Source: an uncultured Chloroflexia bacterium (lineage in GTDB: Bacteria; Chloroflexota; Chloroflexia; QHBQ01; JADMIH01). Taken from it: a DNA stretch of 64,000 nt. Made by a program: the position numbers and the translations under genes. The notes under the pieces are model-generated. The model did not search any database. It saw only the letters and a list, made by a program, of their open reading frames with translations, and had not been told where the DNA came from. The stretch covers positions 640,001 through 704,000 of the forward strand of contig CAWCNY010000006.1 in NCBI GenBank assembly GCA_963797095.1, written 5' to 3'. Below, in pieces: positions 6,578 to 35,830 of the stretch; positions within the stretch are counted from its first letter, which is position 1, and the number at the start of each line of letters is the position of its first letter.

Positions 6578-7866
6578 TAGGCCCTATGCGTCAGAAGAAT
6601 TGAGAAGGCCCATGAGCATGAGAGCTTGGTGTGGGCGTTGGCTGTTGGCACGTAAGGCCGAGGCTATGCGATGTAGACCTCCTCTGTGTAACAAGCTCAC
6701 CTGTGTAACAAGCTCACCGCCGTAGTGCGTAGCGCCGACATCACCGCTCCTCCTTGCCCCACATGGATCAAGCTCCTGTCTTCTCCCATTGTCACGTCCA
6801 CTCTTTATCACCCCTTTGTGCTCCCACTTGCGCTTGATCTGCACTACCTGTGAAAGCCCTGGCCACCGGCTGTAGCTGTAGCCCGCAAGGTCGGTTGAGG
6901 CTATCCCCACTCGCTCCTCTATACGTCCATGTCCCTTGTCCACAGTAGTTGCAGAACGGTAGTCGAACTCCTCCTCCTTTGCTTGTTGGGCATTCTGCAT
7001 TTCGGGTGCCTGGAAGAGAGTGTCCAACTCCTCCAGCAACTGGGGTTGATTGCCTCGCACCACCAGCAACTGGGGTTGATTGCCTCGCACCACCACCAGA
7101 TAATCACCCCCATCCCCAAGCACCATCTCGCACAACTGCACCTGGCAGTACAAGGCATCCCCTGTCAGTATCCTTCCCTGCCAACTGATGCTACTCACCA
7201 ACTTTGGCGCTCCACTTAGTTCAGCTTCTCCATGCTGGTTATCCAGAGCGAGTTGGGCCAGCACTACCCCAACGTCGTGGCAGAATGCTTCTATGTCATG
7301 GATTGTGCAAGCATTATCAGGCTCAAACTGCAACTGATCCTTGCGAGCCTTACCGTCCACAGCTACTGCCTGCTGGCCACGTCGCCGTATTCGCTTATGC
7401 GAGTTTTGCTCTTGCTCAAAGTAATCAGTCAGTGCCATACGCAGTTGGTGTGGGTCAAGACGACGAAACAGACGGTGGAGTGTGGACTGGGTAGGGCTGC
7501 GGTCCATGGGTAGATCGAGTGCCTGCCGAAGTTGGGGCGATAAGCCCTGTGCCCACTCAGCAATAGCCAACACCGATAGGCAGTTGCACAGGATACCAGC
7601 CACAGCCAGGCACAACAAGCTCGGTAGCCAATAGACCCGGCCTTGAGCACGGCGGGGATCGGGTACTGTCGCAAAGGCTTGGAACAGATCGCAAATCCCG
7701 AGGTCGAACTGCTCATATTCGTACTGATAGGCATAGGATTTAGATGCTGTATACTGAATTGGGCGTTCCTTTCTGCTATGGGATTCTTAGTCGAACCCTA
7801 TCTTAGCAGAGGAACGCTCGTTTGTCTTTCTCTCTTATTCCCTCCTTTTAGCACGCATAAGCCCTG
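6578..7866 (-). mobile_element. ISAs1-family insertion sequence (decayed)
   Basis: Imperfect TIRs TAGGCCCTATGCGT / ACGCATAAGCCCTG; 10-bp direct repeat GGGATCTGGT at 6568-6577 and 7867-7876. Confidence 0.85.
6584..7759 (-). pseudogene. ISAs1 transposase pseudogene
   Basis: VPDPRR, AVDGK, TGDALYCQ, DKGHGRIEER present; start codon reads ATT after GAAAGGA; RxHWxIEN segment deleted; DVTMGEDRS out of frame; 30-nt and 17-nt duplications. Confidence 0.8.
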
Positions 7867-9687: not shown

Positions 9688-9878
9688 AACCCCAAAAGTA
9701 CTACGATTCCAGGCACCTTCACGCTAAGTGCTAGCACAATATATTACTAAAGTAGTATATTTCAGTAGCCATCCGGACCAGGCGTCTCTCCCCCCAAAAT
9801 CCCATTGTGGTCGGGGTCTAATTGGCCCTATGCTTAAGTAGACCGTTCAATACAGTCCTCCATAATAATTCAAGGGAA

Positions 9879-10772
9879 ATGAGGTTCGGATTAGTGTACT
9901 CCGACATAAAAGAAAGCCCCTGTAAGAAAGGGATATTAGCAGCATGCATATCAGCAGCGGTATTAACGCTGATGCTTCCTTTGTTCACAATGACCGGAGG
10001 GGCCAATGCCTCGCCACTCGTAGCACCCGCCGCAGGCGCTCCGCCCCCTCCTCCCACAGCGCCCGCCACCTTGCCTGCTGCCTCACCGACCGGACAGTCG
10101 GCAACGCCCACCGTGCCCGGCCCCGTACCCACAGGTGTTATGCCTCCCGGCTCATGCTCGATTACATTCTCAGATGTTGAGCCTGAAGCCTGGTACTACA
10201 ATTACATCATGTGGATGGCGTGTAATGGCATAGCTCAGGGCTACCCTGATGGCACCTTCAAGCCGGGCAACCTTGCCACGCGCGGCCAGATAGTCAAAAT
10301 CGTAGTAAGCGCATTCGACCTGCCGCTCCACAACTTCGACGGATCGCACTTCGCCGACGTGCCCGTAGGTAGCACATTCTTCGACTGGGTAGAGACGGCG
10401 GCCTTCTACCAAATAGTCGAAGGGTATCCATGCGGAGGCCCTGGCGAACCTTGCAACGCGCTGAACCAGCCCTACTATCGACCGAACAGCAACGTGAGCC
10501 GGGCGCAATTGACCAAGATAATCGTGATCGCAGCCCAATTGACGAACCCTTCGGCCTGGATCCTCCTGAACCCGTCGGAGGCCACTTTCAGCGACGTTCC
10601 GACCGGCAGCACCTTCTACGTGTACGTCGAAACTGCGGTTACTCACGGTGTGTTGGAAGGTTATCCATGCGGAGGATCGGGCGAACCTTGCCCAGGTCGC
10701 TACTTCCGTCCCAATGGCACTGCTACCCGCGCCCAATTGTCGAAGATGGTGTACGAGGCTGTAGTTCCCTAA
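9879..10772 (+). CDS. Secreted S-layer homology (SLH) domain protein
   Basis: Three SLH-like repeats (FSDV..., GYPDGTFKP..ATRGQ, VSRAQ, ATRAQ) with GYPCGG.GEPC loops; signal-like N-terminus; start uncertain. Confidence 0.85.
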   Translation: MRFGLVYSDIKESPCKKGILAACISAAVLTLMLPLFTMTGGANASPLVAPAAGAPPPPPTAPATLPAASPTGQSATPTVPGPVPTGVMPPGSCSITFSDVEPEAWYYNYIMWMACNGIAQGYPDGTFKPGNLATRGQIVKIVVSAFDLPLHNFDGSHFADVPVGSTFFDWVETAAFYQIVEGYPCGGPGEPCNALNQPYYRPNSNVSRAQLTKIIVIAAQLTNPSAWILLNPSEATFSDVPTGSTFYVYVETAVTHGVLEGYPCGGSGEPCPGRYFRPNGTATRAQLSKMVYEAVVP

Positions 10773-10777
10773 CACGC

Positions 10778-10807
10778 TTGACGCTTACCCCCGCTGGATT
10801 GTATAAT
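10778..10807 (+). promoter_or_regulatory. Sigma70-type promoter of tRNA-Pro
   Basis: TTGACG-N18-TATAAT. Confidence 0.7.
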
Positions 10808-10817
10808 TATCCAGCAT

Positions 10818-10891
10818 CGGGGTGTAGCGCAGCCCGGCAGCGCACATCGTTTGGGACGATGGGGCCACAGGTTCAAATCCTGTCACCCCGA
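10818..10891 (+). tRNA. tRNA-Pro(TGG), CCA not encoded
   Basis: Acceptor CGGGGTG/CACCCCG, anticodon arm CATCG-TT-TGG-GA-CGATG, T-arm ACAGG-TTCAAAT-CCTGT. Confidence 0.95.
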
Positions 10892-11046
10892 CACATTGGC
10901 TCCCGCCATTTGCAATCTTCATTGCGATAAAGGCGGGAGCCTTGCACGTTAATGATACCGTGGACCTACCGAGATAGCAATGCCACCAGAGAGCCATTCC
11001 ATCCTGGTCTGGCGACAAAAGACCTCCAGATCGGGGCTTTTACCCA

Positions 11047-11075
11047 TTGACTATTTAGTACATTTGTGCTATTAT
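11047..11075 (+). promoter_or_regulatory. Promoter with overlapping imperfect palindrome (LexA-like)
   Basis: TTGACT-N17-TATTAT; AGTACATTTGTGCT at 11057-11070. Confidence 0.6.
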
Positions 11076-11146
11076 GGAGTTACCGTCTCACTACCCCGAC
11101 CAACTTGTAGCACCCCAATTCCTTATCAACCTGGAGGACAAATCTC

Positions 11147-11512
11147 GTGGTAAATCCTATTGTGCATGTGGAAATTCCGGCAATCGATCCGGCATCGGCA
11201 GCGCAGTTCTATTCCGATATTTTTGGTTGGTCGATCATCAAGGACGATCAATTCAATTATCACATGTTCCGGGCCGAAGGCGGCCCCGGAGGCGGCTTCA
11301 CCACGGTAGGTCAGTACGGTACCGAAGTCGGCGATGTGCTCGTTTACATGGGCACCGACGACATTGACGGCACATTGGCAAAGATCGAAGCGGCAGGCGG
11401 CAAGGTCGTCTCCGCCAAGCAGGAGATCCCCGGCACCGGTTGGTTTGCCGTCTTCACCGACCCCACCGGCAATAAGCTTGCCCTCTATACGCCAGTGGAG
11501 AGGCAGAGCTAA
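11147..11512 (+). CDS. VOC/glyoxalase family protein
   Basis: HVEIPA.D...AAQFYSDIFGW ... FTDPTGNKLAL; GTG start after GGAGG. Confidence 0.9.
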   Translation: MVNPIVHVEIPAIDPASAAQFYSDIFGWSIIKDDQFNYHMFRAEGGPGGGFTTVGQYGTEVGDVLVYMGTDDIDGTLAKIEAAGGKVVSAKQEIPGTGWFAVFTDPTGNKLALYTPVERQS

Positions 11513-11535
11513 TTCACTGAGCAACTTATAGTAGT

Positions 11536-11571
11536 CAGGCAGTTGGCCCGGTAGGCCAACTGCCTTTCTTT
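11536..11571 (+). terminator. Intrinsic terminator
   Basis: AGGCAGTTGGCC/GGCCAACTGCCT stem plus T-tract. Confidence 0.8.
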
Positions 11572-11631
11572 GGTCAATGTCAAAGCGTGAGAAATAGCTC
11601 TTACCGACCTCACGAATCGCGTGCGTCGCGC

Positions 11632-11660
11632 TTGACATCCACTCATGCTTCCCGTATAAT
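11632..11660 (+). promoter_or_regulatory. rpsL promoter
   Basis: TTGACA-N17-TATAAT consensus. Confidence 0.85.
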
Positions 11661-11710
11661 GATATTCTGTGCGCAAAGTGCGCCTTTTTAGAAGTTGTTG
11701 AGGAGAACCA

Positions 11711-12142
11711 ATGCCGACGATTAATCAACTTGTGCGCAAGGGCCGCGCAACAACGAGCAAGAAGACCAAGGCTCCGGCTCTGCGCTTCATATTAAATTCA
11801 AGTACCCAGCAGGTGCGCCGTGGCAAAGGCTCGCCTCAGAAGCGCGGTGTTTGCACTCAAGTGCGTACCATGACCCCCAAGAAGCCCAACTCGGCCCTCC
11901 GCAAGATCGCCCGCGTTCGCCTCTCGAATGGCATGGAAGTCACCGCCTATATTCCCGGTGAAGGCCACAACTTGCAGGAGCACTCGGTAGTGCTTATCCG
12001 CGGTGGTCGTGTCAAGGACTTGCCTGGCGTGCGCTATCACATCATTCGTGGCACGCTTGACGCACAGGGCGTCAAGGATCGCAAGCGCGGTCGCTCCAAG
12101 TATGGAGCCAAAAACCCGGCCAAGGCCAAGAAGGGTAGATAA
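11711..12142 (+). CDS. rpsL: 30S ribosomal protein S12
   Basis: [32 protein letters not shown]. Confidence 0.99.
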
Positions 12143-12147
12143 TATTC

Positions 12148-12186
12148 GTTAGTCTGTTGTCGAATACCCGCATGACAACTGACAAC
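12148..12186. repeat. Heptamer inverted-repeat element (GTTGTC/TGACAAC family), short
   Basis: GTTAGTCTGTTGTC ... GACAACTGACAAC. Confidence 0.5.
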
Positions 12187-12212
12187 TCGTACACACGGAG
12201 GAATAACGGCAA

Positions 12213-12683
12213 ATGCCACGACGAGGTAGATTTGACAAGCACCCGCTCCTGCCCGATGCCCGCTACAACAGCCTGATGGTATCCAGATTCATCAACAAGC
12301 TGATGGTAAGGGGCAAGAAGGGTCTGGCCGAGAGCATTTTGTACGGAACAATCGATGAGCTTGAGCGCCGCGCCAAGCGGCCCGGCTTAGAAGTGTTCGA
12401 GCAGGCTCTGCGCAATGCCACCCCCGTGATCGAGGTCAAGCCTCGCCGCGTCGGTGGTGCGACTTACCAGGTGCCGGTCGAGATCAAGGGCGACCGTCGC
12501 CAGTCGCTCGCCATCAGGTGGATCCTCGCCGCCGCCCGCAAGCGTTCGGGCAGAAGCATGGTAGACCGCCTCTCAGCCGAACTGATGGACGCCTCCAATA
12601 ATGTGGGCACCACCATCAAGAAGAGGGAAGATACCCACAGGATGGCCGAAGCCAACAGGGCTTTCGCCCACTACAGGTTCTAA
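12213..12683 (+). CDS. rpsG: 30S ribosomal protein S7
   Basis: [23 protein letters not shown]. Confidence 0.99.
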
Positions 12684-12710
12684 CGAGCAACCAGAACAGC
12701 CTGACAAAGC

Positions 12711-12746
12711 AGAGAGGCGAGTTCCGAAGAACCCGCCTCTCTTGTT
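12711..12746. terminator. Terminator between convergent rpsG and Uma2 gene
   Basis: AGAGAGGCG ... CGCCTCTCT followed by TGTT. Confidence 0.7.
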
Positions 12747-12759
12747 GTGTACTGGCTTG

Positions 12760-13377
12760 CTACTCTGCGTCTAGTACCTCGCCTATACCAACAGAGAACC
12801 CATCCAAGAGTACCGAAGTGGCCATGTCGCCCCGGCGATAGACACCATGTTCGGCATATACGCCATCTGCCAGTGATAGGATTGCGCACGTCTCGGTCGT
12901 TGGATTGACAATCCAGTATTCAGGGATGAGGGCTTTGGCGTAATCTCGTCGCTTTTCTGTGATGTCACGCTCGGGGTTGTCGGGGCTGACTACCTCGATT
13001 ACCAGGTCGGCTCCCAGCCAGTAGGCGTTTTGCCGCCGGGTATCTCTACTGTCGAATAACACTAGAAGGTCCGGTTCCCGAAATCTATCCTCATAGACCC
13101 TGAGCCGGAGAGGCGCAACTCTTACGATCCCGCCTCGCGATTGCAGCAACGAATGTAGTGCGTAGAGCAGAAATTGCACGATCGCTTGATGGTGATCAGT
13201 GGGCATGGATAACACCTCGAGATTGCCGGCGGTGAATTCAATCATCTTGTTGGTGTGATTTGTAAGGCGCAAGTACTGCTCTGTAGTCCAGGTGCCTTGA
13301 ATCTCATCGAGATCGGCGATAATCTCGCCGGCACCATCAACTACTTTGAGAGTTTGAGATCGTGCTGTAGCAACCAT
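12760..13377 (-). CDS. Uma2 (DUF820) PD-(D/E)xK endonuclease family protein
   Basis: REPDLLV, ADLVIEVVSP, KRRDYA...IPEYWIVNP. Confidence 0.9.
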   Translation of the reverse strand: MVATARSQTLKVVDGAGEIIADLDEIQGTWTTEQYLRLTNHTNKMIEFTAGNLEVLSMPTDHHQAIVQFLLYALHSLLQSRGGIVRVAPLRLRVYEDRFREPDLLVLFDSRDTRRQNAYWLGADLVIEVVSPDNPERDITEKRRDYAKALIPEYWIVNPTTETCAILSLADGVYAEHGVYRRGDMATSVLLDGFSVGIGEVLDAE

Positions 13378-13553
13378 TGTGAGTTCTCCGCAGGGAATTG
13401 ATGAAGCAAAATCACATTGCTGAATCGTTCACTTGTGAGTATATCACCAGCCCATTACCCGCCGCAAACAGGCAAGCGCAACATCCGCAAATGTGGTATA
13501 ATTGTTGAGATTGCCACAAAATCAGAGCTTTATATAAGCATGGAGGGAAAGAA

Positions 13554-15629
<2,076 letters not shown>

Positions 15630-15662
15630 GTTCAGCGCTCAATGCCCAATTAGATATGAAAG

Positions 15663-15700
15663 AAGAAGACCAGGTACTGTGCACAGTACCTGGTCTTCTT
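15663..15700. terminator. Perfect 38-bp palindrome, probable terminator after fusA
   Basis: AAGAAGACCAGGTACTGTG|CACAGTACCTGGTCTTCTT. Confidence 0.7.
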
Positions 15701-15793
15701 GCATTATGCTGTAGTAAGCCCATATGGGCGCGGTAAACGCCTCGGACCTTGGGCTGGCGCGCCGTATCATAGCATCCAAGCGCTGACCGTTCT

Positions 15794-16282
15794 CTACCCC
15801 AATATTAGCGCCGCCCATCGCCGCACTATATCATGGTGCACTTCCCAGGCATCCCAGGCCGATCCACCCCATTTCCATACCGCCTTCGTATGTTCATCAC
15901 TATTTCGAGCGGCATAAACATCCATCACGGTGATATCTCCACGCGATGTAGGCGGCTCCAACCAGAAATATCTGACCCTCGACTCCATAGCCCAAGTAGG
16001 TACCATCGATGCTTGCACGGGCGGAAATCCACGCTCCAACATCAAGTAAAGCCGTATCAGATGCGCAGCTATGGCATTGATGGTTTGGGTAGAAGGGCTG
16101 CCAGGGTGTTGCACTGCATAAGCATCAACGGTAACTCGATAGGCCTGGCGGTACACGGGGTCTCTGTACTGCCTGGCCATCACATCGCCATAGGTGACCC
16201 AACAACCGGGTGAAGTATCCAAATATGTGTGTACCATGCCCGCGATATCGGGCACTTGCGCTCCACATCCAATACAGAGCAC
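15794..16282 (-). CDS. Conserved hypothetical protein (DUF5946-like)
   Basis: CIGCG...SPGCW...VDAYAVQHPG...HLIRL; start approximate. Confidence 0.65.
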   Translation of the reverse strand: MLCIGCGAQVPDIAGMVHTYLDTSPGCWVTYGDVMARQYRDPVYRQAYRVTVDAYAVQHPGSPSTQTINAIAAHLIRLYLMLERGFPPVQASMVPTWAMESRVRYFWLEPPTSRGDITVMDVYAARNSDEHTKAVWKWGGSAWDAWEVHHDIVRRWAALILG

Positions 16283-16470
16283 TCGCTTTGCCGTCCCTTC
16301 CGTGATCTTCCTCCTCTAGTTAATGTGGTCCTCTATCCGATTGCATACACAAGCAACCAGTTAGCTATGAATTGGGAGGCTGTTCACAGTTGAAGCTGGG
16401 CACGCTAAATTTCCACAGGACAACACTGTGCCATTCTCTCTAAACACGTACACGGTTCTTCCAACAACCG

Positions 16471-16704
16471 TCAAGAATACTCGGTACCGTCTCTATCTAT
16501 GACGCCCGGTACTTGCAGAGGACTGCTGTAAAATCGCGCCATAAACTCACAATGCTGTAGAGAAGTGGGGCCTTTGTGCCATGCTTCTTCGAGCTGCTTG
16601 CATAAGCGCTCCGCATCTTCACGGGTTCTGAGGCCCGGATAGCTGCCCCAGTTACCCCATACATACCTTGGCTCATCACGCTCAAATATGACCCACATAG
16701 CCAT
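16471..16704 (-). CDS. Small hypothetical protein (possibly truncated)
   Basis: ATG with GGAAGGG upstream; AT-richer region. Confidence 0.4.
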   Translation of the reverse strand: MAMWVIFERDEPRYVWGNWGSYPGLRTREDAERLCKQLEEAWHKGPTSLQHCEFMARFYSSPLQVPGVIDRDGTEYS

Positions 16705-16977
16705 CCCTTCCGCTTTTGGACTAGAACATGTAAGTTGTTGGCACTTGATGACGGATTGGACTTGTTATAGTGGAGTCCGTGCTTGTAAATAGCAATTTGT
16801 ATTCTTTAGTAGCGTAGAACTCTATACACCATCTCCAGGGTTCTATTACTAATTCCTGACTGATACATAGAATAGCATATTAACATTCCAAAATCAATAG
16901 GCATAACAGCGCTTCGAACTCTTTCTTGGGCCTGCAAGCTCTCACTCTAGAGAATATGCAGATCGCTTGCAACACGC

Positions 16978-17006
16978 TTGACACCCGCCCCTATTTCCTA
17001 TATACT
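16978..17006 (+). promoter_or_regulatory. S10 operon promoter
   Basis: TTGACA-N17-TATACT. Confidence 0.85.
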
Positions 17007-17070
17007 TATGTACTGTGCGCTTTTATGCGATGTAATAGGAAAGGGCCAGGAAAATAAAAATCAAATAAGA

Positions 17071-17194
17071 GGCGTATAACGCACGCGGGCGCGTGTGGTT
17101 ACCCTTCAAAGGTGACTACGAAAAAAGTATGGGCTCTGTTTCCATACGCCGTGCGCGGTGCGCTCAAGCGTCAGAAACAGAGCCCTTTTTGTTT
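17071..17194 (+). promoter_or_regulatory. Candidate S10 leader attenuator
   Basis: GGGCTCTGTTTC/GAAACAGAGCCC stem plus TTTTT; competing GGCGTAT/ATACGCC pairing. Confidence 0.6.
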
Positions 17195-17234
17195 GTCTTG
17201 AAGATGAAGGTCGAAAAGCAAACTACCAGGCGCG

Positions 17235-17259
17235 AATACGCAGTAAGCAGTACGCAATA
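17235..17259. repeat. Heptamer repeat, single arm (AGTACGC family)
   Basis: AATACGC AGTAAGC AGTACGC AATA. Confidence 0.6.
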
Positions 17260-17284
17260 GTACTAACTTAACAAAGGAAGATAA

Positions 17285-17593
17285 ATGGCTACCAAGCAGA
17301 AGATTCGTATAAGGCTCAAAGCGTTTGACCACAGAATTCTTGACCAGTCGGCGCAGCAGATCGTGGAGACAGCTGAGCGCACAGGTGCACTGGTGGCAGG
17401 TCCGGTACCTCTACCCACCAAGATCGAAAAGTACTCCGTCATTCGCGGTCCTTTCATCGACAAGGACTCGCAAGAGCAGTTCGAGATCCGCACCCACAAA
17501 CGTCTCATCGACATTCTGGAGCCAACCCAGAAGACGATCAACGCCCTCATGCGGCTCAACCTGCCCGCAGGCGTAGACGTCGAGATCAAGTAG
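17285..17593 (+). CDS. rpsJ: 30S ribosomal protein S10
   Basis: [27 protein letters not shown]. Confidence 0.99.
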
Positions 17594-17655
17594 ACGAAAG
17601 ACAACAGACGAACGAGGAAGGAATTGCATTCGTCCACCGTCGTCAGTCCTTCGTC
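17593..17655. repeat. Heptamer inverted-repeat element (GACGAAN/NTTCGTC)
   Basis: GACGAAA GACAACA GACGAAC GAGGAAG ... ATTCGTC CACCGTC GTCAGTC CTTCGTC. Confidence 0.8.
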
Positions 17656-17750
17656 ATAATAGGGAATCTTGCCTCGGCATCTCGAAGCCGCATGTACCGG
17701 CGATGTGCGCTCGGTAAGGCAAGCGAAACTCCATAGGAGCAAGTACCGAA

Positions 17751-18386
17751 ATGATAAAGGCAATTTTAGGTAGAAAACTGGGCATGACCCAGGTATTTGA
17801 AGCGGCAGGCATCGCCACCGGGGTAACGGTGATCGAGGCCGGGCCTTGCGTTGTCACGCAGGTAAAGACCCCTGAGAAGGATGGCTACACAGGCGTGCAA
17901 CTTGGCTGGGGTGATGTTCGCGAGAACCGCCTCACCAAGTCCGAGCGCGGCCACCTTCGTAAGAAGAAGCTACCCCTGGTACGCCACCTGCGCGAAGTGT
18001 CGGTCGACCCCAACGGCGAGCTTCCTAAGCGTGGATCGCGCATCGATGTGACGATGTTCCAGGAAGGCGATTTCGTGGACGTTATCGGCACCAGCAAAGG
18101 CAAGGGTTTCGCGGGCGTAATGAAGCGCCACAACTTTCGTGGTGGCCCCCGCACACACGGCCAATCTGACCGCTCTCGCCGCCCCGGCTCCATCGGCCCC
18201 GGCTCCACGCCAGGCCGTGTGTTCAAGGGCACCCGCATGGCGGGCCGTATGGGCAACTCCCGCGTTACGGTTCAGAACCTGCGCATAGTTTCTGTCGATC
18301 CGGATCGCAATCTCCTGCTGGTCAAGGGCGCTGTCCCCGGCCCCACCGAGGGAATGTTGATCGTTCGCAAGGCAATAAAGAAGTAG
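17751..18386 (+). CDS. rplC: 50S ribosomal protein L3
   Basis: [25 protein letters not shown]. Confidence 0.99.
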
Positions 18387-18449
18387 CTGGCAGCATAGTA
18401 GTCAGTAGTCAGATGTTTTTCCGATTACCGACTACCTACCACCGACTAC
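18383..18449. repeat. Heptamer inverted-repeat element (GTAGTCR/CGACTAC)
   Basis: AGTAGTC AGTAGTC ... CGATTAC CGACTAC CTACCAC CGACTAC. Confidence 0.8.
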
Positions 18450-18473
18450 TTACGACGTAAGGAGTAATTAGAA

Positions 18474-19673
18474 GTGCAAGCGACAATATACAACCTGGCC
18501 GGGGAAGAGGTAGAGAAGGTTGATCTGCCTGATGCCATCTTCGGCATCGAGCCGAACGAGGGGGTTATCCATCAGGCGGTTCTCCGCCAACAGGCCAACG
18601 CCCGCCGTGGTACCCACGACACCAAGACCCGCGCCTACGTGAGCGGCGGCGGCAAGAAGCCCTGGCGTCAGAAGGGCACCGGGCGTGCTCGCCAGGGTTC
18701 CACCCGCTCTCCGCAGTGGCGGCATGGTGGCGTAGTATTCGGCCCCCACCCCCGCTCGTACGAGCAGGATATGCCCCGCAAGATGCGCCGCCTCGCTATT
18801 CGCAGCGTTCTCTCAGGCAAGATGGCCGATGGTCAGATCGTTCTTGTGGACAGCTTCCAAACCCTGGAGCCTCGTACAAAGGCTATGATCGCGGCCCTCA
18901 ACAGCCTGAATATAGGCGACAAGAAAGCCCTAATTTTCACTACTGGTGGGGAAAGCACACTTCGCCAGGCTGCCGGCAATCTGCCAAACATCAAGATGCA
19001 GAGCGCCCACCTCCTGAGTGTGGTGGACATGCTCACCCACGATTTTGTGGTTCTCCCTAAGGATGCACTCGATGTGGTGACAGGCATACTCGGCAACACG
19101 GGTGGTCGCGCTAAGCTGACGCTGAGGGCGGTTACTGCCCCGAGGACCAATGGCAAGGCCACGGAGCCTGCCAGAGTCGTTGAAGTCGCCAAGCCCAAGC
19201 CCGATGTGAAGGCCGAAGTAGCGGCGGTTGAGGAAGCGAAAGAGACGAAGGCCGAGAGCAAGCCCCGAACATCGCGTCGCAAGAGCGAGCCTGAGACATC
19301 AGCGACCGAGACCCCGGCCCCATCGATTGCAGCGGGCAAGGTGGTCATCGCAACAGTCCATTATCAGGGCGAGGAATATGTTCAACTCAGAAACGACAAT
19401 GACCTGCCCGTGGATTTAAGCGGCTGGACGCTCCGCGACAAGAATGAAGAATCGCAGAGTATGACCTTCCCGGATGGTACCGAGCTAAAGCCAGGCTCGA
19501 CCCTCAGAGTCTTTACAGAGCCGGGCCACAAACTCACATTCGATAGCAAGCGTCCCATCTGGAACGATGAAGGCGATATAGCTGCACTGTTGAACCCGGC
19601 AGGCGAGGAAGTGTCCACCTTCGCCTACGGCAAATACGCCGAGGAAAGCGAAGGCGAAGGGAGCGAGAAATAA
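18474..19673 (+). CDS. rplD: 50S ribosomal protein L4 with C-terminal lamin-tail-like (LTD) domain
   Basis: L4 motifs KPWRQKGTGRARQG, GGVVFGP (aa 1-~207); linker; EYVQLRN...VDLSGWTLRD...FP.GT.L.PG...IWNDEGD..ALLNPAGEEVS. Confidence 0.93.
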   Translation: MQATIYNLAGEEVEKVDLPDAIFGIEPNEGVIHQAVLRQQANARRGTHDTKTRAYVSGGGKKPWRQKGTGRARQGSTRSPQWRHGGVVFGPHPRSYEQDMPRKMRRLAIRSVLSGKMADGQIVLVDSFQTLEPRTKAMIAALNSLNIGDKKALIFTTGGESTLRQAAGNLPNIKMQSAHLLSVVDMLTHDFVVLPKDALDVVTGILGNTGGRAKLTLRAVTAPRTNGKATEPARVVEVAKPKPDVKAEVAAVEEAKETKAESKPRTSRRKSEPETSATETPAPSIAAGKVVIATVHYQGEEYVQLRNDNDLPVDLSGWTLRDKNEESQSMTFPDGTELKPGSTLRVFTEPGHKLTFDSKRPIWNDEGDIAALLNPAGEEVSTFAYGKYAEESEGEGSEK

Positions 19674-19963
19674 TGCCTCATATGTATGAAGTCTTGCGCC
19701 GTCCCATTATGACAGAGCGCAACACAGAACTGATGATGCAAGGCCGCTACACATTTGAGGTAGCGCCCGATGCGAACAAAATACAGATCAAAGAGGCGGT
19801 CGAGAAGGCCTTCGACGTAACGGTATTGGCGGTCAACACGCTCAACGTTCACGCCAAAGCTCGCCGCCAGCGTACCCGCCTGCGCGGTCACAAACCGGGC
19901 TGGAAGAAAGCAATCGTAACATTGGCCCCCGGCCAGAGGATCGAGATATTCGAAGGCGTCTGA
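19673..19963 (+). CDS. rplW: 50S ribosomal protein L23
   Basis: RPIMTE, ANKIQIKEAVE, WKKAIVTL; TAATG overlap with rplD. Confidence 0.98.
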   Translation: MPHMYEVLRRPIMTERNTELMMQGRYTFEVAPDANKIQIKEAVEKAFDVTVLAVNTLNVHAKARRQRTRLRGHKPGWKKAIVTLAPGQRIEIFEGV

Positions 19964-19966
19964 GCC

Positions 19967-20038
19967 ATTTTGGGTTTTAGATCTCGGATAGCGGATTGAT
20001 CCCCTAAATCCGAAATCTAAAATCCGGAATCCAAAATC
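19967..20038. repeat. Heptamer inverted-repeat element (GATTTTG/CAAAATC)
   Basis: ATTTTGG GTTTTAG ATCTCGG ATAGCGG ... CGAAATC TAAAATC CGGAATC CAAAATC. Confidence 0.85.
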
Positions 20039-20048
20039 GGAGAGAATT

Positions 20049-20903
20049 ATGCCAGTAAGAAAGTACAACCCAACCTCCCCTGGCCGCAGGATCATGAGCG
20101 TGGCGACTTTCGAGGAAATCACCAAGAAGAAGCCCGAGAAATCGCTGATCGTTGCTCAGAAGAAGTCCGGTGGGCGCAACAACACCGGGCGCATCACAAC
20201 CCGGCATCGCGGCGGTGGGCACAAGCATCACTACCGCATCATCGACTTCAAGCGCAACAAGTACAACATCCCCGGCAAGGTGGCGGCGGTCGAGTACGAC
20301 CCCAACCGCTCGGCCCGGATTGCCCTTGTCAATTACGCCGATGGCGAGAAGCGCTATATACTTATGCCAATTGGCCTCAAGGTAGGCGACACGATCATGT
20401 CGGGCGATAACGCCGATGTGCGTGTGGGCAACACCCTGCCTCTCCGCCGTATCCCACTCGGCACGCAGATCCACAATGTTGAGCTGCATATCGGCAAGGG
20501 CGGCCAGTTGGTGCGCAGCGCGGGCGGCGTGGCCCAACTTATGGCCCGCGACGACAAATACGCCCAGGTGCGCCTCCCGTCCGGTGAGGTGCGCATGATC
20601 CACGTGAACTGCATGGCTACCATAGGCCAGGTGGGCAACGTGGAGCACGAGAATATCCGAATCGGCAAGGCCGGGCGCAAGCGCTGGTTGGGCAGGCGTC
20701 CCGAAGTGCGTGGGGCAGCCATGAACCCGGTCGATCACCCGCACGGTGGTGGCGAGGGCCGAGCACCACGCGGTGGGCAGCCTCAGACCAAGTGGGGCAA
20801 GCCCGCACAGGGCTACCGCACCCGCAACAACAAGCGGACCGACAAATTTATCATACGTGGCCGACGCCGTGGGCCTCAGGCCGCAGGCAAGGGGCAGAGA
20901 TAG
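20049..20903 (+). CDS. rplB: 50S ribosomal protein L2
   Basis: [21 protein letters not shown]. Confidence 0.99.
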
Positions 20904-20957
20904 TTCCAAGTTGCTGGTTCCTGATAAGTTACTCACCGGTAACTAGAACCAGCACCT
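20902..20957. repeat. Heptamer inverted-repeat element (GGTTCCT/AACCAG family)
   Basis: AGTTCCA AGTTGCT GGTTCCT ... AACTAG AACCAGC. Confidence 0.55.
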
Positions 20958-20972
20958 TCCAGAGGAGAAAAG

Positions 20973-21257
20973 ATGACACGTTCAGCTAAGAAGGGGCCTT
21001 TCGTAGACCATAACCTTGAGGAAAAGATCCTCAGGATGAACCAGCGGAATGAGAAGCGCGTGATCAAGACCTGGGCGCGTGCCAGCACCATCACCCCCGA
21101 CATGGTGGGCCACACACTAGGTGTGCACGACGGCAGGCGTCATATCCCCATCTATGTGACCGAGAACATGGTCGGTCACAAACTGGGCGAGTTTGCACTA
21201 ACCCGCTTCTACAAAGGCCACGGGGCCAAGACCGAGAAGGCCACGCGCTTGAAATAG
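20973..21257 (+). CDS. rpsS: 30S ribosomal protein S19
   Basis: [19 protein letters not shown]. Confidence 0.99.
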
Positions 21258-21304
21258 GGGGTCGGCAGGGGAGAGTCCCTGCACGGGGTGTGGGGTGTCC
21301 CCAC
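21257..21304 (+). repeat. G-rich double-hairpin intergenic repeat, copy 1
   Basis: GCAGGGGAGAGTCCCTGC then GTGGGGTGTCCCCAC; similar to 27457-27504. Confidence 0.6.
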
Positions 21305-21335
21305 TCTCTACCTCTACAGAGGAGATGAACAAAGA

Positions 21336-21674
21336 ATGGAAGTACGAGCAGTAGCCAAGCATATTCGCCGGTCACCCCGCAAGATTCGCCTTGTGATGGA
21401 TGCCGTGCGCGGTAAGAGCGTTGACGAGGCAGTCGCCATCCTGCGATTCCTTCCGCATACCAGCGCCGACGAAATCCTGAAAGTAATCAGGAGCGCAGCG
21501 GCCAACGCCGAAAACAATTATCAGATGGCTCCCGAAGACCTCTTCATCAAGGCCATCTACGCGGACGAGGGCCCGACCATCAAGCGCTTCCGCGCCCGCT
21601 CACGCGGTATGGCCGCCCCCATCCTCAAGCGGACCAGCCATATTACAGTTGTTGTAGAAGAGAGAGAATACTAG
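21336..21674 (+). CDS. rplV: 50S ribosomal protein L22
   Basis: SPRKIRLV, SAAANAENN, KRTSHITVVV; start ATG 21336. Confidence 0.98.
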   Translation: MEVRAVAKHIRRSPRKIRLVMDAVRGKSVDEAVAILRFLPHTSADEILKVIRSAAANAENNYQMAPEDLFIKAIYADEGPTIKRFRARSRGMAAPILKRTSHITVVVEEREY

Positions 21675-21678
21675 TAGA

Positions 21679-21748
21679 ATTATGGATTTCCGATTGCGGA
21701 TTTGCCATACTAAATCCGAAATCTAAGATCCGAAATCCGCAATCCGAA
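21679..21748. repeat. Heptamer inverted-repeat element (GATTTTG/CAAAATC family)
   Basis: ATTATGG ATTTCCG ATTGCGG ... CGAAATC TAAGATC CGAAATC CGCAATC. Confidence 0.85.
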
Positions 21749-21759
21749 CAGGGGGAACC

Positions 21760-22620
21760 ATGGGACGAAAGGTCCATCCAACATCATTCAGGCTCGGCAT
21801 TATCCGAGATTGGCAATCTCGCTGGTACGCCGACCGCAACTATACCGACATGCTCCACGAGGATGTGCGCATTCGCGCCCTTGTGAATAAGAGACTATCG
21901 AACGCTTCTCTGTCCAGCATCGAGATCCAGCGTTCGGCCAACCAGCTTGACGTTACCCTTCACACAGCCAAACCGGGCGTTGTGATCGGCAAAGGCGGCC
22001 AGGCTGTTGACCAGCTTCGCAAAGACCTCGAAACGATGACGGGCAAGAAGGTCAAGCTCAATATTGAAGAGATCAAGCAGCCCGAGCTTGATGCCTATCT
22101 GGTAGCCGAGAGCATCGCCGAGCAGATCACCCGCCGCGTGTCATACAAGCGTGCCCTCAAGCAGGCTGTACTTCGCTCGACTCGTGCCGGGGCCAAAGGC
22201 GTCAAGATTCGCATCTCAGGCCGCCTCGGTGGCGCTGAAATGGCCCGCTCCGTGTGGGAGCGCGAAGGCCGCGTGCCTCTGCACACCATCCGCGCCGACA
22301 TCGACTACGGGCAGGTGCACGCCCACACAACCTATGGCCGCATCGGCGTCAAAGTGTGGATTTACAAGGGCGAAGTCATCCAGCGCAAAGGTGGCGACTC
22401 CCTGCTTGAGGTGGACCGCCCGCTGGCAACAGCCGCCCCGCGCCCTGAGCGCCGCGAACGACGCGAGCGCGATGACCGTGGCGGGCGCGGCGGAGGACGT
22501 GGCGGGGAGCGTGGAGATCGAGGAGATCGCGGCGAGCGCGCCCCTCGTGCCCCTCGAGCCGAAGCCCCTCAGACTGGTACGGCCTCCGGCGGCGAGATGG
22601 GCTCGTCCAACGAAGCGTGA
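21760..22620 (+). CDS. rpsC: 30S ribosomal protein S3 with Arg/Gly-rich tail
   Basis: [31 protein letters not shown]. Confidence 0.99.
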
Positions 22621-24793: not shown

Positions 24794-25513
24794 GTGGCTA
24801 AGGACGATAACAAAGGCAAAGCCGGGACGGCCAAAGGTGGAGGCAAGCCGTCAAACGCTCAACAGAGGGGTGGCGGGCAGGGCGCAGGTGCCAATGGTGC
24901 AGCCGCGAGCCAGCCTCGCGCCCAGCTTCGTAGTGCCGGTGGCCCTAATGAGATACCGGAAGGCTATGTGCCTCGCCTCAAGAAGAGATATGCAGATGAA
25001 GTGGTTCCTGCCCTGCTCAAGGAATTCAATTTCTCTAATGTAATGCAGGTTCCAGTGGTCAAGAAAGTAGTTATTAATATCGGTATGGGAAGCGAGGCAC
25101 GTGAAAACGTCAAGTCGCTCGATAATGCCGTGGGCGACCTGGCCCAGATCACCGGCCAGAGGGCTGTGATCACCCGCGCCAAGAAGTCTATCGCTGCCTT
25201 CAAGTTGCGCACAGGGATGCCCATCGGCGTGATGGTCACCTTGCGCGGCCCCAGGATGTGGGACTTCCTGGACAAACTGTTCAATATAACGCTGGCTCGC
25301 GTGCGCGACTTTTCGGGTGTGTCCCCCAGTTCGTTTGACGGGCATGGCAACTTCACCCTCGGCCTGCGTGAGCAACTGATCTTCCCTGAAATCGAATATG
25401 ACAACATCGACAAGGTTCGTGGCATGGAGATCGTAATTGTGACCTCTGCCAGGAACGATGAAGAAGGCCGCAGCCTTCTGCAACACCTGGGAATGCCGTT
25501 CAAAAGAGGCTGA
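24794..25513 (+). CDS. rplE: 50S ribosomal protein L5 with Gly/Ala-rich N-terminal extension
   Basis: [23 protein letters not shown]; GTG start after GAGGAG. Confidence 0.97.
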
Positions 25514-27539: not shown

Positions 27540-28271
27540 ATGGCTAGATTAGAACGAGGAACCATATCAGAGCTTGATGAGAAGCTGGTCCAGGTCAACC
27601 GTGTCGCCAAAGTGGTGAAAGGTGGCCGCAGGTTCAACTTCAGCTCGGTGGTAGTGGTAGGTGACGGTAAGGGCATGGTTGGCGCCGGTACAGGTAAAGC
27701 CTCCGAGGTCCCCGACTCGATCCGCAAGGCGGGCGACGACGCCAAGAAGCACATGATCCGTGTGCCTCTCGTCGGCAGCACCATCCCCCACGATGTGCGT
27801 GTCTCCTACGGCGCAAGCACTGTCTACCTCAAGCCCGCTGCTCCCGGTACCGGCGTGATAGCCGGTGGTGGAGTGCGTGCGGTACTTGAAGCTGCCGGTG
27901 TGCGCGACGTGTTCGGCAAGTCGCTCGGCAACAACAACCCCATCAACCTGGTGCGCGCCACCCTGCTGGCCCTCTCCAAACTCCATTCTGTGGAGGATGA
28001 GGCCATGCGTCGTGGTATCCCCCAGGAGGAGATGGAGAAGCGACTCTTCCGCAAGGACGTAGCCGTCCAGAAGGCGATCCGCGAGGGCCGTATGCAAGCT
28101 GCTCCCGCCATCAGGACCGTCGAAAAACCTGCTCGCGAGGAGCGCCCACCCAGGCGTGATGGTCGTGGCCGCGACGGCCAGGGTGCCGGCCCCGGTGGCG
28201 GTGGCCGAGGCAACCGTGGCGATAACCGCGGTGGTCAGGGCAGAGGAGGAGGCGGACGTGGCCGAGGCTAA
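27540..28271 (+). CDS. rpsE: 30S ribosomal protein S5 with RGG-rich tail
   Basis: [24 protein letters not shown]. Confidence 0.99.
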
Positions 28272-34465: not shown

Positions 34466-35830
34466 TTGACAAGTGGAATAACAAGCAGTCTGCCTAATGT
34501 CGTGGCGGTGGCGACAGCCCCCAACTATGGCCGGTTTGCAATCGGTCCGTTGGAGGGAGGGATCGGCATCACGCTGGGCAACGCTTTGCGCCGCATTCTG
34601 CTGTCCTCGCTACCCGGCTCTGCGGTTACCAGCGTGCGGATTCAGAACGTGTACCACGAGTTTTCGTGCATACCTAATGTGCGCGAAGACGTGACAGAGA
34701 TCGTACTTAATGTAAAGAACATCCGCCTTCGCTCTTACAGCGACCGGGCGGTGCGCCTCAACCTGAGCAAATATGGCCCAGGCGAAGTGCGCGCTGGCGA
34801 TATTGACCTGCCCGCCAACGTCGAATTGGTCAATCCCGAATTGGTGCTGGCTACCCTCGATGGTACCGGTGCCCGCCTTGAGATGGAACTGACAGTAGAG
34901 CGCGGTCGCGGCTATGTGTCCTTTGAGGCCCGCGAGGGGATGCAGATCGGCACGATACCCGTTGATGCCATCTTCTCACCCATCCCTAAGGTGAACTACC
35001 TTGTACAGTCCGCCGACGCCGATGTCCTCTACCCCATACCTGAGGTGGGCGATACCACGGCTGAGTCGAACGGCGCGACCGACTCTGACTCGGCCCCCGT
35101 CGTAGACCTGACAGGACGCGAACAATTGCAGATCGAAATCTGGACGGATGGCACGATTGACCCCGGCGAGGCCCTTAGCCTATCGGCCCAATATCTCGCC
35201 CAGCATTCGTCCCTGATCAGCAACTTCAACAAGCAGGCCGCCCCCACAGGGCGCGAGCTACCCGGCGCGATCGCCATCCCGCCCCACCTGTTCGAGATGC
35301 CTATCGAGGATCTCAATCTCTCGATGCGCACCTACAACTGCCTCAAGAGAAGTGGTATCACTAAAGTAGGTCAGGTTCTCCGCATGGAGAAGAAAGAACT
35401 TCTCGGCCTGCGCAATTTCGGCGAGAAATCGTTTGATGAACTGCACCAGGCCCTCTCCACGCGCGACCTGATCCCGCCTGGCACTCCGCTCGACCTTTCA
35501 GGCGAAAATGAGGAAGGTGCGGAAGGCGAAGGCGAGGACGAAAGCCTGGATCAGGTGGAAGTCGGGTATGGAGAATACGATGCCCCTGCTGAACCTGAGG
35601 CCTTTATGGGTGAAGGGGAGGGCGGCGATGATTATCGCTCTGCCGAGGTTGTAGACCTTGCAGGCGAGAGTGAAGGCAGCGCGGAAGCCTCTGCCGGTAT
35701 CTACATCGACGGTGAGCCTGCCTCTGACGGCATAGACCTCACCCCTGACCCCGATACCACGGGCGAGATCGACACCGAAGAAGAGGCCGCTGAAGAGGCC
35801 CAGTCCAAACCAAGAAGCAAAAGGAAGTAG
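34466..35830 (+). CDS. rpoA: RNA polymerase alpha subunit with long acidic tail
   Basis: TLGNALRRILLSS, IPVDAIFSP, LSMRTYNCLKR, RNFGEKS; TTG start. Confidence 0.97.
   Translation: MTSGITSSLPNVVAVATAPNYGRFAIGPLEGGIGITLGNALRRILLSSLPGSAVTSVRIQNVYHEFSCIPNVREDVTEIVLNVKNIRLRSYSDRAVRLNLSKYGPGEVRAGDIDLPANVELVNPELVLATLDGTGARLEMELTVERGRGYVSFEAREGMQIGTIPVDAIFSPIPKVNYLVQSADADVLYPIPEVGDTTAESNGATDSDSAPVVDLTGREQLQIEIWTDGTIDPGEALSLSAQYLAQHSSLISNFNKQAAPTGRELPGAIAIPPHLFEMPIEDLNLSMRTYNCLKRSGITKVGQVLRMEKKELLGLRNFGEKSFDELHQALSTRDLIPPGTPLDLSGENEEGAEGEGEDESLDQVEVGYGEYDAPAEPEAFMGEGEGGDDYRSAEVVDLAGESEGSAEASAGIYIDGEPASDGIDLTPDPDTTGEIDTEEEAAEEAQSKPRSKRK

Follow-up and report, generated by a model that had tools for sequence, protein, structure and literature searches.

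Ribosomal protein uL4 with a C-terminal lamin-tail domain in uncultured soil Chloroflexia

The DNA analyzed here, referred to below as the window, is a stretch of 64,000 nucleotides from the genome of an uncultured Chloroflexia bacterium, and it holds a ribosomal gene cluster in which rplD, the gene for ribosomal protein uL4 (L4), runs on in frame into a lamin-tail domain (LTD). A preliminary description made from the letters had read this open reading frame (ORF) as a full L4 followed by a linker and an LTD; its ORF, coordinates, and lengths were correct within a few residues when set against the ORF list and the translation, and all four of the motifs it had named (EYVQLRN, VDLSGWTLRD, FPDGTELKPG, and IWNDEGD) were present in the translated protein. 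The ORFs at the locus follow the order rplC-rplD-rplW, and the features of the gene and its immediate neighbors are listed below with the evidence for each.

18474-19673, + strand: rplD ORF, 399 residues, GTG start (ORF list, translation)
18474-19109, + strand: canonical uL4 part, residues 1-212, ending in the conserved ILGNTGGR (PF00573, TIGR03953, AlphaFold2 [AF2], invariant columns in 38 homologues)
18606-18764, + strand: extended uL4 loop, residues 45-97 (KPWRQKGTGRARQGS...), invariant in the 38-row alignment and low in predicted local distance difference test score (pLDDT)
19110-19334, + strand: disordered Ala/Glu/Lys/Thr/Pro linker, residues 213-287 (pLDDT, composition, nonsynonymous divergence [dN])
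19335-19634, + strand: LTD, an immunoglobulin (Ig)-like beta-sandwich, residues 288-387 (PF00932, AF2, Foldseek, profile match)
19635-19673, + strand: acidic C-terminal tail (KYAEESEGEGSEK) and TAA stop (sequence)
18459-18464, + strand: Shine-Dalgarno (SD) sequence AAGGAG of rplD, 9 nucleotides 5' of the GTG start (from sequence)
17751-18386, + strand: rplC (uL3), upstream neighbor in the operon (ORF list; 73-82% identical orthologues at the same position in relatives)
19673-19963, + strand: rplW (uL23), translationally coupled to rplD (ORF list, start/stop overlap; named by operon order and sequence)

The profile matches to uL4 and to the LTD both lie far beyond chance. PF00573 (Ribosomal_L4) covered residues 16-203 with 221 bits against a cut-off of 25.8 (E 1.4e-65; profile positions 1-188 of 190), and the NCBIfam equivalog TIGR03953 (rplD_bact) scored 241.7 bits against a cut-off of 130.1. 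PF00932 (LTD) covered residues 285-386 with 77.1 bits against a gathering score of 34.3 (E 1.7e-21; profile positions 3-108 of 109), and thus the two families that the preliminary description had proposed to look for were both found above their cut-offs. Between them lies a linker of about 75 residues (70 if counted from the GGR motif to the LTD) with the composition A13 E10 K9 T9 V7 P7, and across 42 homologues its length ranged from 50 to 123 residues, with a median of about 82. In an alignment of 38 homologues, uL4 and the C-terminal domain were conserved, the linker between them was hypervariable, and no stop occurred. The LTD of the window has no cysteine, a net charge of -7, and a pI of 4.7, and all 30 of the L4-linked LTDs compared had a net charge between -5 and -13. 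PF00573 had exactly one match in the whole genome (6.02 Mb, 8 contigs, 93% complete), and a genome-wide search placed LTDs in six further ORFs. The sole rplD gene of this genome thus encodes one polypeptide in which a disordered tether joins a complete uL4 to an acidic LTD that is folded and contains no cysteine, and the reading as L4, linker, and LTD is supported by Pfam, by fold prediction, and by conservation across genomes.

Structure prediction divided the protein in the same way. In a full-length AF2 model built from the 38-row alignment, the globular part of uL4 (residues 1-40 and 100-210) had a pLDDT of about 90, the tunnel loop (residues 45-97) was low, as expected, the linker (residues 219-287) stayed below 50, indicating disorder, and a C-terminal seven-strand beta domain (residues 290-387) reached 83-91. 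In known ribosomes, the extended uL4 loop lines the exit tunnel and becomes ordered only on rRNA. The predicted template modeling score (pTM) of the full-length model was 0.44, and no contact between the LTD and uL4 was confident. When folded alone from a 27-row alignment, the LTD reached a pLDDT of 85 and a pTM of 0.75, and a Foldseek search of the PDB returned 17 matches with E <=0.001, in which ranks 1-15 (12 listed rows) were all Ig-folds of lamins A/C, B1, and B2, with a probability of 1.00 and TM scores of 0.62-0.69. The structure prediction that the preliminary description had called for therefore produced a lamin-like Ig fold. Likewise, lamins accounted for 16 of the 17 matches when the LTD profile was compared with PDB sequences, the best being lamin B1 (E 2.7e-7). 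A look-alike search of the ESM Atlas gave no usable match, and a two-copy complex prediction for self-association of the LTD gave neither an answer nor support and was used as evidence in neither direction.

Two separate genes might have been joined artificially, through misassembly, a frameshift introduced by sequencing, or an overlooked stop, and this deserved consideration, since the genome is a metagenome-type assembly. We searched a collection of 5.8 billion proteins, where 7963 of 8000 scored candidates matched, and the figures given here come from the 120 best listed clusters. PF00932 and PF00573 occurred together in 44 of these 120 clusters, the window's protein included; an architecture search across Chloroflexota had been proposed in the preliminary description. 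These fusion proteins had 375-532 residues and shared 54-79% identity with the query; they derived from NCBI, ENA, JGI, and Logan assemblies, and the only name attached to them was "50S ribosomal protein L4" from Chloroflexia or Chloroflexota metagenome-assembled genomes. We also sampled 40 genomes of the window's order with the window's LTD as the query, 26 from the same genus and 14 from two other families. In seven of the 26 genus genomes (G000, which is the window's own, G025, G062, G088, G106, G037, and G109), the LTD followed L4 directly on its 3' side, on the same contig and in the same frame, as checked on the DNA; the denominator of 26 takes in G013, G031, and G133, which are flagged unpublished and all lack the fusion. 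With the same query, no fusion was found in the 14 genomes from the other two families. In a collection of species-representative genomes, L4 lay upstream of the LTD at 6 of 79 retrieved loci, all six titled uncultured Chloroflexia or Chloroflexota, and the remaining 73 were unrelated LTDs, at most 45% identical, from cyanobacteria, actinomycetes, and other groups. The recurrence of one in-frame architecture in 44 clusters of four independent origins, as well as in seven separately assembled genomes, with linkers that vary in length and sequence among carriers and contain no stops, thus excludes a misassembly or a missed stop; we regard an artifact as extremely improbable. Pieces from three soil-metagenome contig sets covered positions 18300-18428, 18527-18692, and 19821-19900 of the window, and none of them lay over the linker or the LTD.

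Within the order, relatives without the LTD still had a long L4, of about 275-378 residues, with low-complexity tails. Outside the order, L4 was identifiable at nine of ten fetched loci, eight with 204-232 residues and one with 281; the long open frames at these loci represented upstream read-through and are thus no evidence for C-terminal tails on L4 there. Tandem arrangement of two LTDs was visible in clusters P0003 and P0004 (530-532 residues) and in genome G088 (L013, G088:C31), and the two copies in G088 were mutual nearest relatives in the LTD tree. A search of the full-text literature, judged by titles and abstracts, found no description of an L4-LTD fusion, in agreement with the statement in the preliminary description that none was known, although the architecture already sits unremarked in public protein collections, probably because it occurs in soil organisms that have not been cultured.

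The remark that bacterial LTDs are typical of secreted or membrane-associated proteins fits what was observed in the sister genomes, where the nearest relatives of the window's LTD sit on a signal-peptide-bearing protein beside the same operon. Where members of the genus lack the fusion, the LTD of the window matched best to the C-terminal end of another protein (45-54% identity). This protein, of about 370-406 residues, consists of a signal peptide, two repeats of about 90 residues (YFPETGH...YFERAVFE), a Pro/Thr linker, and an LTD; in sister genomes its LTD was 42-54% identical to that of the window. The gene for this neighbor protein was divergent and, in G066 and G151, occupied the space between murJ and rpsL at a distance of 5-8 kb upstream of rplD; in G148 it had the same position at a contig end, with murJ absent from the contig. 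In the fusion genomes G000, G062, and G106, a gene encoding an SLH domain occupied the interval instead, whereas G025 possessed the SLH gene, the neighbor LTD gene, and the L4-LTD fusion together. Of the relatives, G025 is nearest to the window; its rplD is truncated and is 94% identical over the 150 uL4 residues that align.

9822-10772, + strand: SLH-domain protein in the MurJ-to-rpsL interval (PF00395 SLH, synteny comparison)

We placed 50 LTDs in a maximum-likelihood tree of 108 columns, namely 30 L4-linked, 14 neighbor-type, and 6 others; not entered were 22 of the 44 fusions from the database, one duplicate locus, and, from a protein of 2240 residues, two weak domains. The 30 L4-linked LTDs formed one clade with a support of 97/99, the L4-linked and neighbor-type LTDs together split from the 6 others with a support of 84/99, and the neighbor-type LTDs formed an unresolved grade around the L4-linked clade. 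LTDs of the neighbor type also occurred in f3, a sister family in which no fusion was found. All 14 neighbor-type LTDs contained one or two cysteines, including the Cys of IWN[ND]CGD (mostly IWNNCGD), whereas the 30 L4-linked LTDs contained none and had K, E, A, or Q at that site. Because the L4-linked LTDs form one clade adjoining the neighbor-type LTDs, the simplest reading of the tree and the gene order is that the LTD was acquired once, as a copy of the C-terminal LTD of the neighboring secreted protein, and that the conserved Cys would then have been lost. A recent foreign origin of the LTD segment was considered and dropped, as composition gave no sign of it (GC content at third codon positions, 0.64 versus 0.67-0.78 in neighboring genes).

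The MurJ-to-rpsL interval (window positions 9822-11728; L125/L028, G025:C149) is itself a variable spot among the genomes. At the site where G025 has its LTD gene, the window's genome encodes a tRNA (10818-10891) and a protein of the glyoxalase family (11147-11512), and an Rfam scan of positions 10000-22000 returned that tRNA and nothing else. The repeat of about 90 residues that makes up the N-terminal half of the neighbor protein (YFPETGH..G.F..YW...GG...GYP.S...YFERAVFE) had 95 matches across the window's genome, mostly N-terminal in ORFs of 350-950 residues, such as L032 (G000:C4:614096-615196), L033, L034, and L035, and is a greatly expanded secreted-protein module. No Pfam family matched it, LGFP repeats, which it may resemble, included.

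The evolution of the gene after the fusion was followed by comparing dN by region in seven fusion genes (21 pairs). Values for the LTD (0.06-0.43) were 2-4 times below those for the linker (0.18-1.10), and those for the uL4 domain were 0.04-0.24. Between carriers, identity drops to about 70% in the L4 domain and about 48% in the LTD, and the fusion has been kept over this deep divergence. Taken at the sequence level, these patterns indicate that the LTD is under purifying selection in its carriers. The domain would have been kept in this way in some lineages and deleted in others, leaving a low-complexity tail. The state of the LTD was mapped on a tree of the uL4 domain with 115 rows, from which five fragments and the window's duplicate were omitted; the rows P0044 and P0048, scored as lacking the LTD, look truncated. 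Given a single origin, the eight changes of state on this tree imply several losses of the LTD.

A number of points weigh against a domain copied from the neighbor protein and kept for a function on the ribosome, and we set them out together. For the direction of copying we depend on a tree of 108 columns and, within it, on a polytomy that is in part unresolved. The event would have been a duplication and no simple relocation of the neighbor gene's LTD into rplD, an option that we rejected, because G025 keeps both the neighbor gene and the fusion. The ratio of dN to synonymous divergence (dS) for the LTD was 0.015-0.31 in the 17 of 21 pairs with computable dS and can be read only qualitatively, because dS exceeded 1 in all but one. 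At least four of the eight changes on the uL4-domain tree are forced by well-supported branches, and such repeated changes of state indicate that the LTD is dispensable in many close relatives. The purifying selection could reflect no more than the harm that misfolding of the domain would do to an abundant and essential protein. Lastly, apart from the Cys site, a single position differed consistently between the two types of LTD, being Tyr in the L4 type (Y388) and His in the secreted type, so that a new binding surface specific to the ribosome is not indicated.

According to a different explanation, the LTD is a passenger that arrived by an accidental local duplication onto rplD, has no ribosome-related function, persists since a clean deletion is rare where the stop codon, SD sequence, and rplW start are interlocked, and is conserved only because misfolding would be harmful. 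The repeated losses in close relatives, the near-absence of residues that set it apart from its secreted paralogue, and the seemingly arbitrary low-complexity extensions on other proteins of the window (uS3, uL5, uS5, and RpoA) all favor it. Retention of the fusion over the divergence described above, the lower dN of the LTD relative to the linker, its tandem duplication in one lineage, and a consistent loss of cysteine that fits adaptation to the cytoplasm argue in the other direction, and on balance we consider a functionless passenger unlikely, while giving it real weight.

A further observation concerned the tails of the L4 relatives without the LTD. A short motif, [IV]AF[EA]PT.EVA.[VI]AEA, sits in the disordered tails of these relatives (P0045-P0115); 33 of the 75 L4 proteins with only a tail contained it, versus 2 of the 42 that bear an LTD (P0034 and P0043), of which P0043 branches early in the LTD tree and P0034 does not. 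The motif may be a linear binding motif, and its near-exclusiveness with the LTD suggests that the domain and the tail peptide are alternative cargoes of the same tether. Positions 19161-19199 of the window (TEPARVVEVAKPK) are perhaps a remnant of the motif.

At its 3' end, rplD is interlocked with the next gene. The TAA stop of rplD (19671-19673) and the ATG of rplW (19673-19675) have one A in common, which gives the TAATG overlap already noted in the preliminary description, and the SD sequence of rplW, GAAGGGAG (19656-19663), lies within the tail codons of rplD, nine bases 5' of the rplW ATG. The TAATG overlap occurred at four of the seven fusion loci, and an SD-like GAAGGGAG or GAGAGCGAGG was present inside the last rplD codons at all seven. 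The final twelve residues of the rplD product are acidic, and because the purine-rich SD sequence sits in these last codons, the conserved ending "...EGSEK / ...ESEG" of the fusion proteins is at least partly an imprint of the ribosome-binding site of the downstream gene. This arrangement also bears on the idea that the LTD is released as a separate protein, through an internal start or proteolysis of the linker, so that mature ribosomes would hold only a short uL4. A long disordered linker would indeed be accessible to proteases, which speaks for release only indirectly; the rplW SD within the last codons ties the full ORF to the operon, and no conserved in-frame start with an SD sequence precedes the LTD, where the residues vary among carriers (GKVVI, GNVVI, GTVKI, and KQATI). 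We consider release of the LTD very unlikely.

The distribution of charge along the protein raised yet another possibility. uL4 proper has a net charge of +10 and a pI of 10.2, and the LTD and tail together have a net charge of -11, so the acidic part might act in cis as a solubility or assembly aid, shielding the basic uL4 before it enters the 50S subunit and having no role afterwards. Dedicated chaperones shield eukaryotic uL4 before assembly. Besides the opposite charges, the strongly acidic tails of many tail-only relatives are in keeping with such an aid. However, the tails of others are Lys-rich and basic (e.g., P0056 and P0088), so that acidity is not general; a charge shield would not need a folded Ig domain; and the full-length AF2 model, with its low pTM, placed the LTD in no confident contact with uL4. 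A shielding function of this kind is improbable in our estimation.

The reading that we prefer is that a single capture of the LTD turned the C-terminus of uL4 into a carrier of a ribosome-tethered module. As a whole, comprising the architecture, the capture, and the tethered module, this explanation seems to us somewhat more probable than not to be right; its structural and evolutionary part is very probably correct, and a function of the LTD as a tethered adaptor for localization or recruitment, which the preliminary description had likewise suggested, is a tentative proposal that falls a little short of an even chance. With no second L4 gene in the genome, every 50S subunit would have to carry the LTD-bearing uL4. 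The C-terminal part of chloroplast uL4 (uL4c) lies on the surface of the subunit and away from the tunnel exit (PMC8733628), and the LTD would form a mobile, ribosome-tethered module because the uL4 C-terminus would face the solvent and is followed by a long linker, for which polymer scaling predicts a typical reach of about 6 nm and a contour length of more than 25 nm. The negative charge of the LTD argues against rRNA, mRNA, or DNA as a target and would favor a protein or an envelope-associated ligand. A protein or envelope-linked partner is also suggested by the ancestry of the domain in an envelope protein and by the only role proposed in the literature for bacterial LTDs, which is to guide their proteins to structures associated with membranes (Mans et al. 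2004, cited after PMC6085458). The LTD would place ribosomes at such a partner or recruit it to ribosomes. More speculatively, and with a chance that we would put on the low side, the uL4 C-terminus may be a flexible tether with interchangeable payloads, either the LTD, in some cases two of them, or the motif peptide, that anchors ribosomes to a membrane or envelope partner, and thus a bacterial counterpart of the pairing of uL4c with the insertase Alb3 that uses a domain co-opted from a secreted protein.

To our knowledge, folded accessory domains are a rare acquisition among the core ribosomal proteins of bacteria. In the organism of the window, where no plain copy of uL4 exists, each large subunit should expose an Ig-like module at the end of a tether about 75 residues long. 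Should this module bind a partner, the localization of ribosomes or the recruitment of a factor would be hard-wired into a ribosomal protein, and a domain of secreted proteins would have been co-opted for a cytoplasmic role with the loss of its cysteine. Gain, duplication, and loss within one genus provide natural pairs with and without the domain for functional tests, and the fusion represents an old, conserved, and previously undescribed ribosome decoration in uncultured soil Chloroflexia.

Several other features of the window were recorded alongside the fusion. Extensions outside the Pfam domains were present on uS3 (21760-22620), which has an RE/RGG-rich C-tail beyond residue 201, and on uL5 (24794-25513), which has a Gly/Ala/Lys N-extension of about 80 residues; uS5 (27540-28271) has an RGG-rich C-tail beyond residue 158, and RpoA (34466-35830) has an acidic tail of about 120 residues following its C-terminal domain. 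The str/S10 ribosomal cluster is interrupted by genes on the opposite strand. In the gap from rpsG to fusA, that strand encodes a putative endonuclease of the Uma2 family (12760-13377, -), found in the same place in G025, and between fusA and rpsJ, an interval without tuf, lie a DUF5946 gene (15794-16282, -) and a 77-residue ORF (16471-16704, -). Just upstream of murJ, the ORF at 6584-7618 (-) contains a DDE_Tnp_1-associated domain (38 bits) and is transposase-related.

The window protein agrees with canonical bacterial uL4 (rplD) in matching the profiles over their full length, in the invariant motif of the tunnel loop, in its place between rplC and rplW, and in being encoded only once, but it is about 190 residues longer, owing to the disordered linker and the folded LTD at its C-terminus. 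Fusions of L4 have a precedent in the NCBIfam family NF051449, the "sunset domain variant", which is likewise a bacterial L4 with a C-terminal add-on. Membership of the window protein in that family was rejected, as it scored 200.8 bits against a cut-off of 385 and matched profile positions 1-211 of 285, the L4 part only; none of 10 relatives passed the cut-off, and a literature search on the L4 sunset domain did not find a paper on it. Secreted and surface-bound bacterial LTD proteins (PF00932) have nearly all conserved positions in common with the window's LTD, with the neighbor type nearest in the tree, whereas the L4 copy is without a signal peptide, has a context that makes it cytoplasmic, lacks the Cys of IWNNCGD, and has Tyr in place of His at position 388. 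The LTD of the nuclease ExeM is another secreted example, the role of which the source left unresolved (PMC6085458). The Ig-fold of the eukaryotic lamin tail (lamins A/C, B1, and B2) was the best match to the window's LTD in both structure and profile, but identity is about 22%, the context is wholly different, and the lamin partners (BAF and chromatin) have no counterpart in the window's system. In chloroplasts, the acidic C-terminal extension of uL4c binds the insertase Alb3 and cpSRP54, and experiments showed that it docks the ribosome to this membrane insertase (PMC8733628). Whereas that extension comprises about 20-50 disordered residues with no folded domain and no homology to the window's LTD, uL4c resembles the window protein as a functional analogy, in that both bear a lineage-specific, acidic, and surface-exposed C-terminal addition to uL4.

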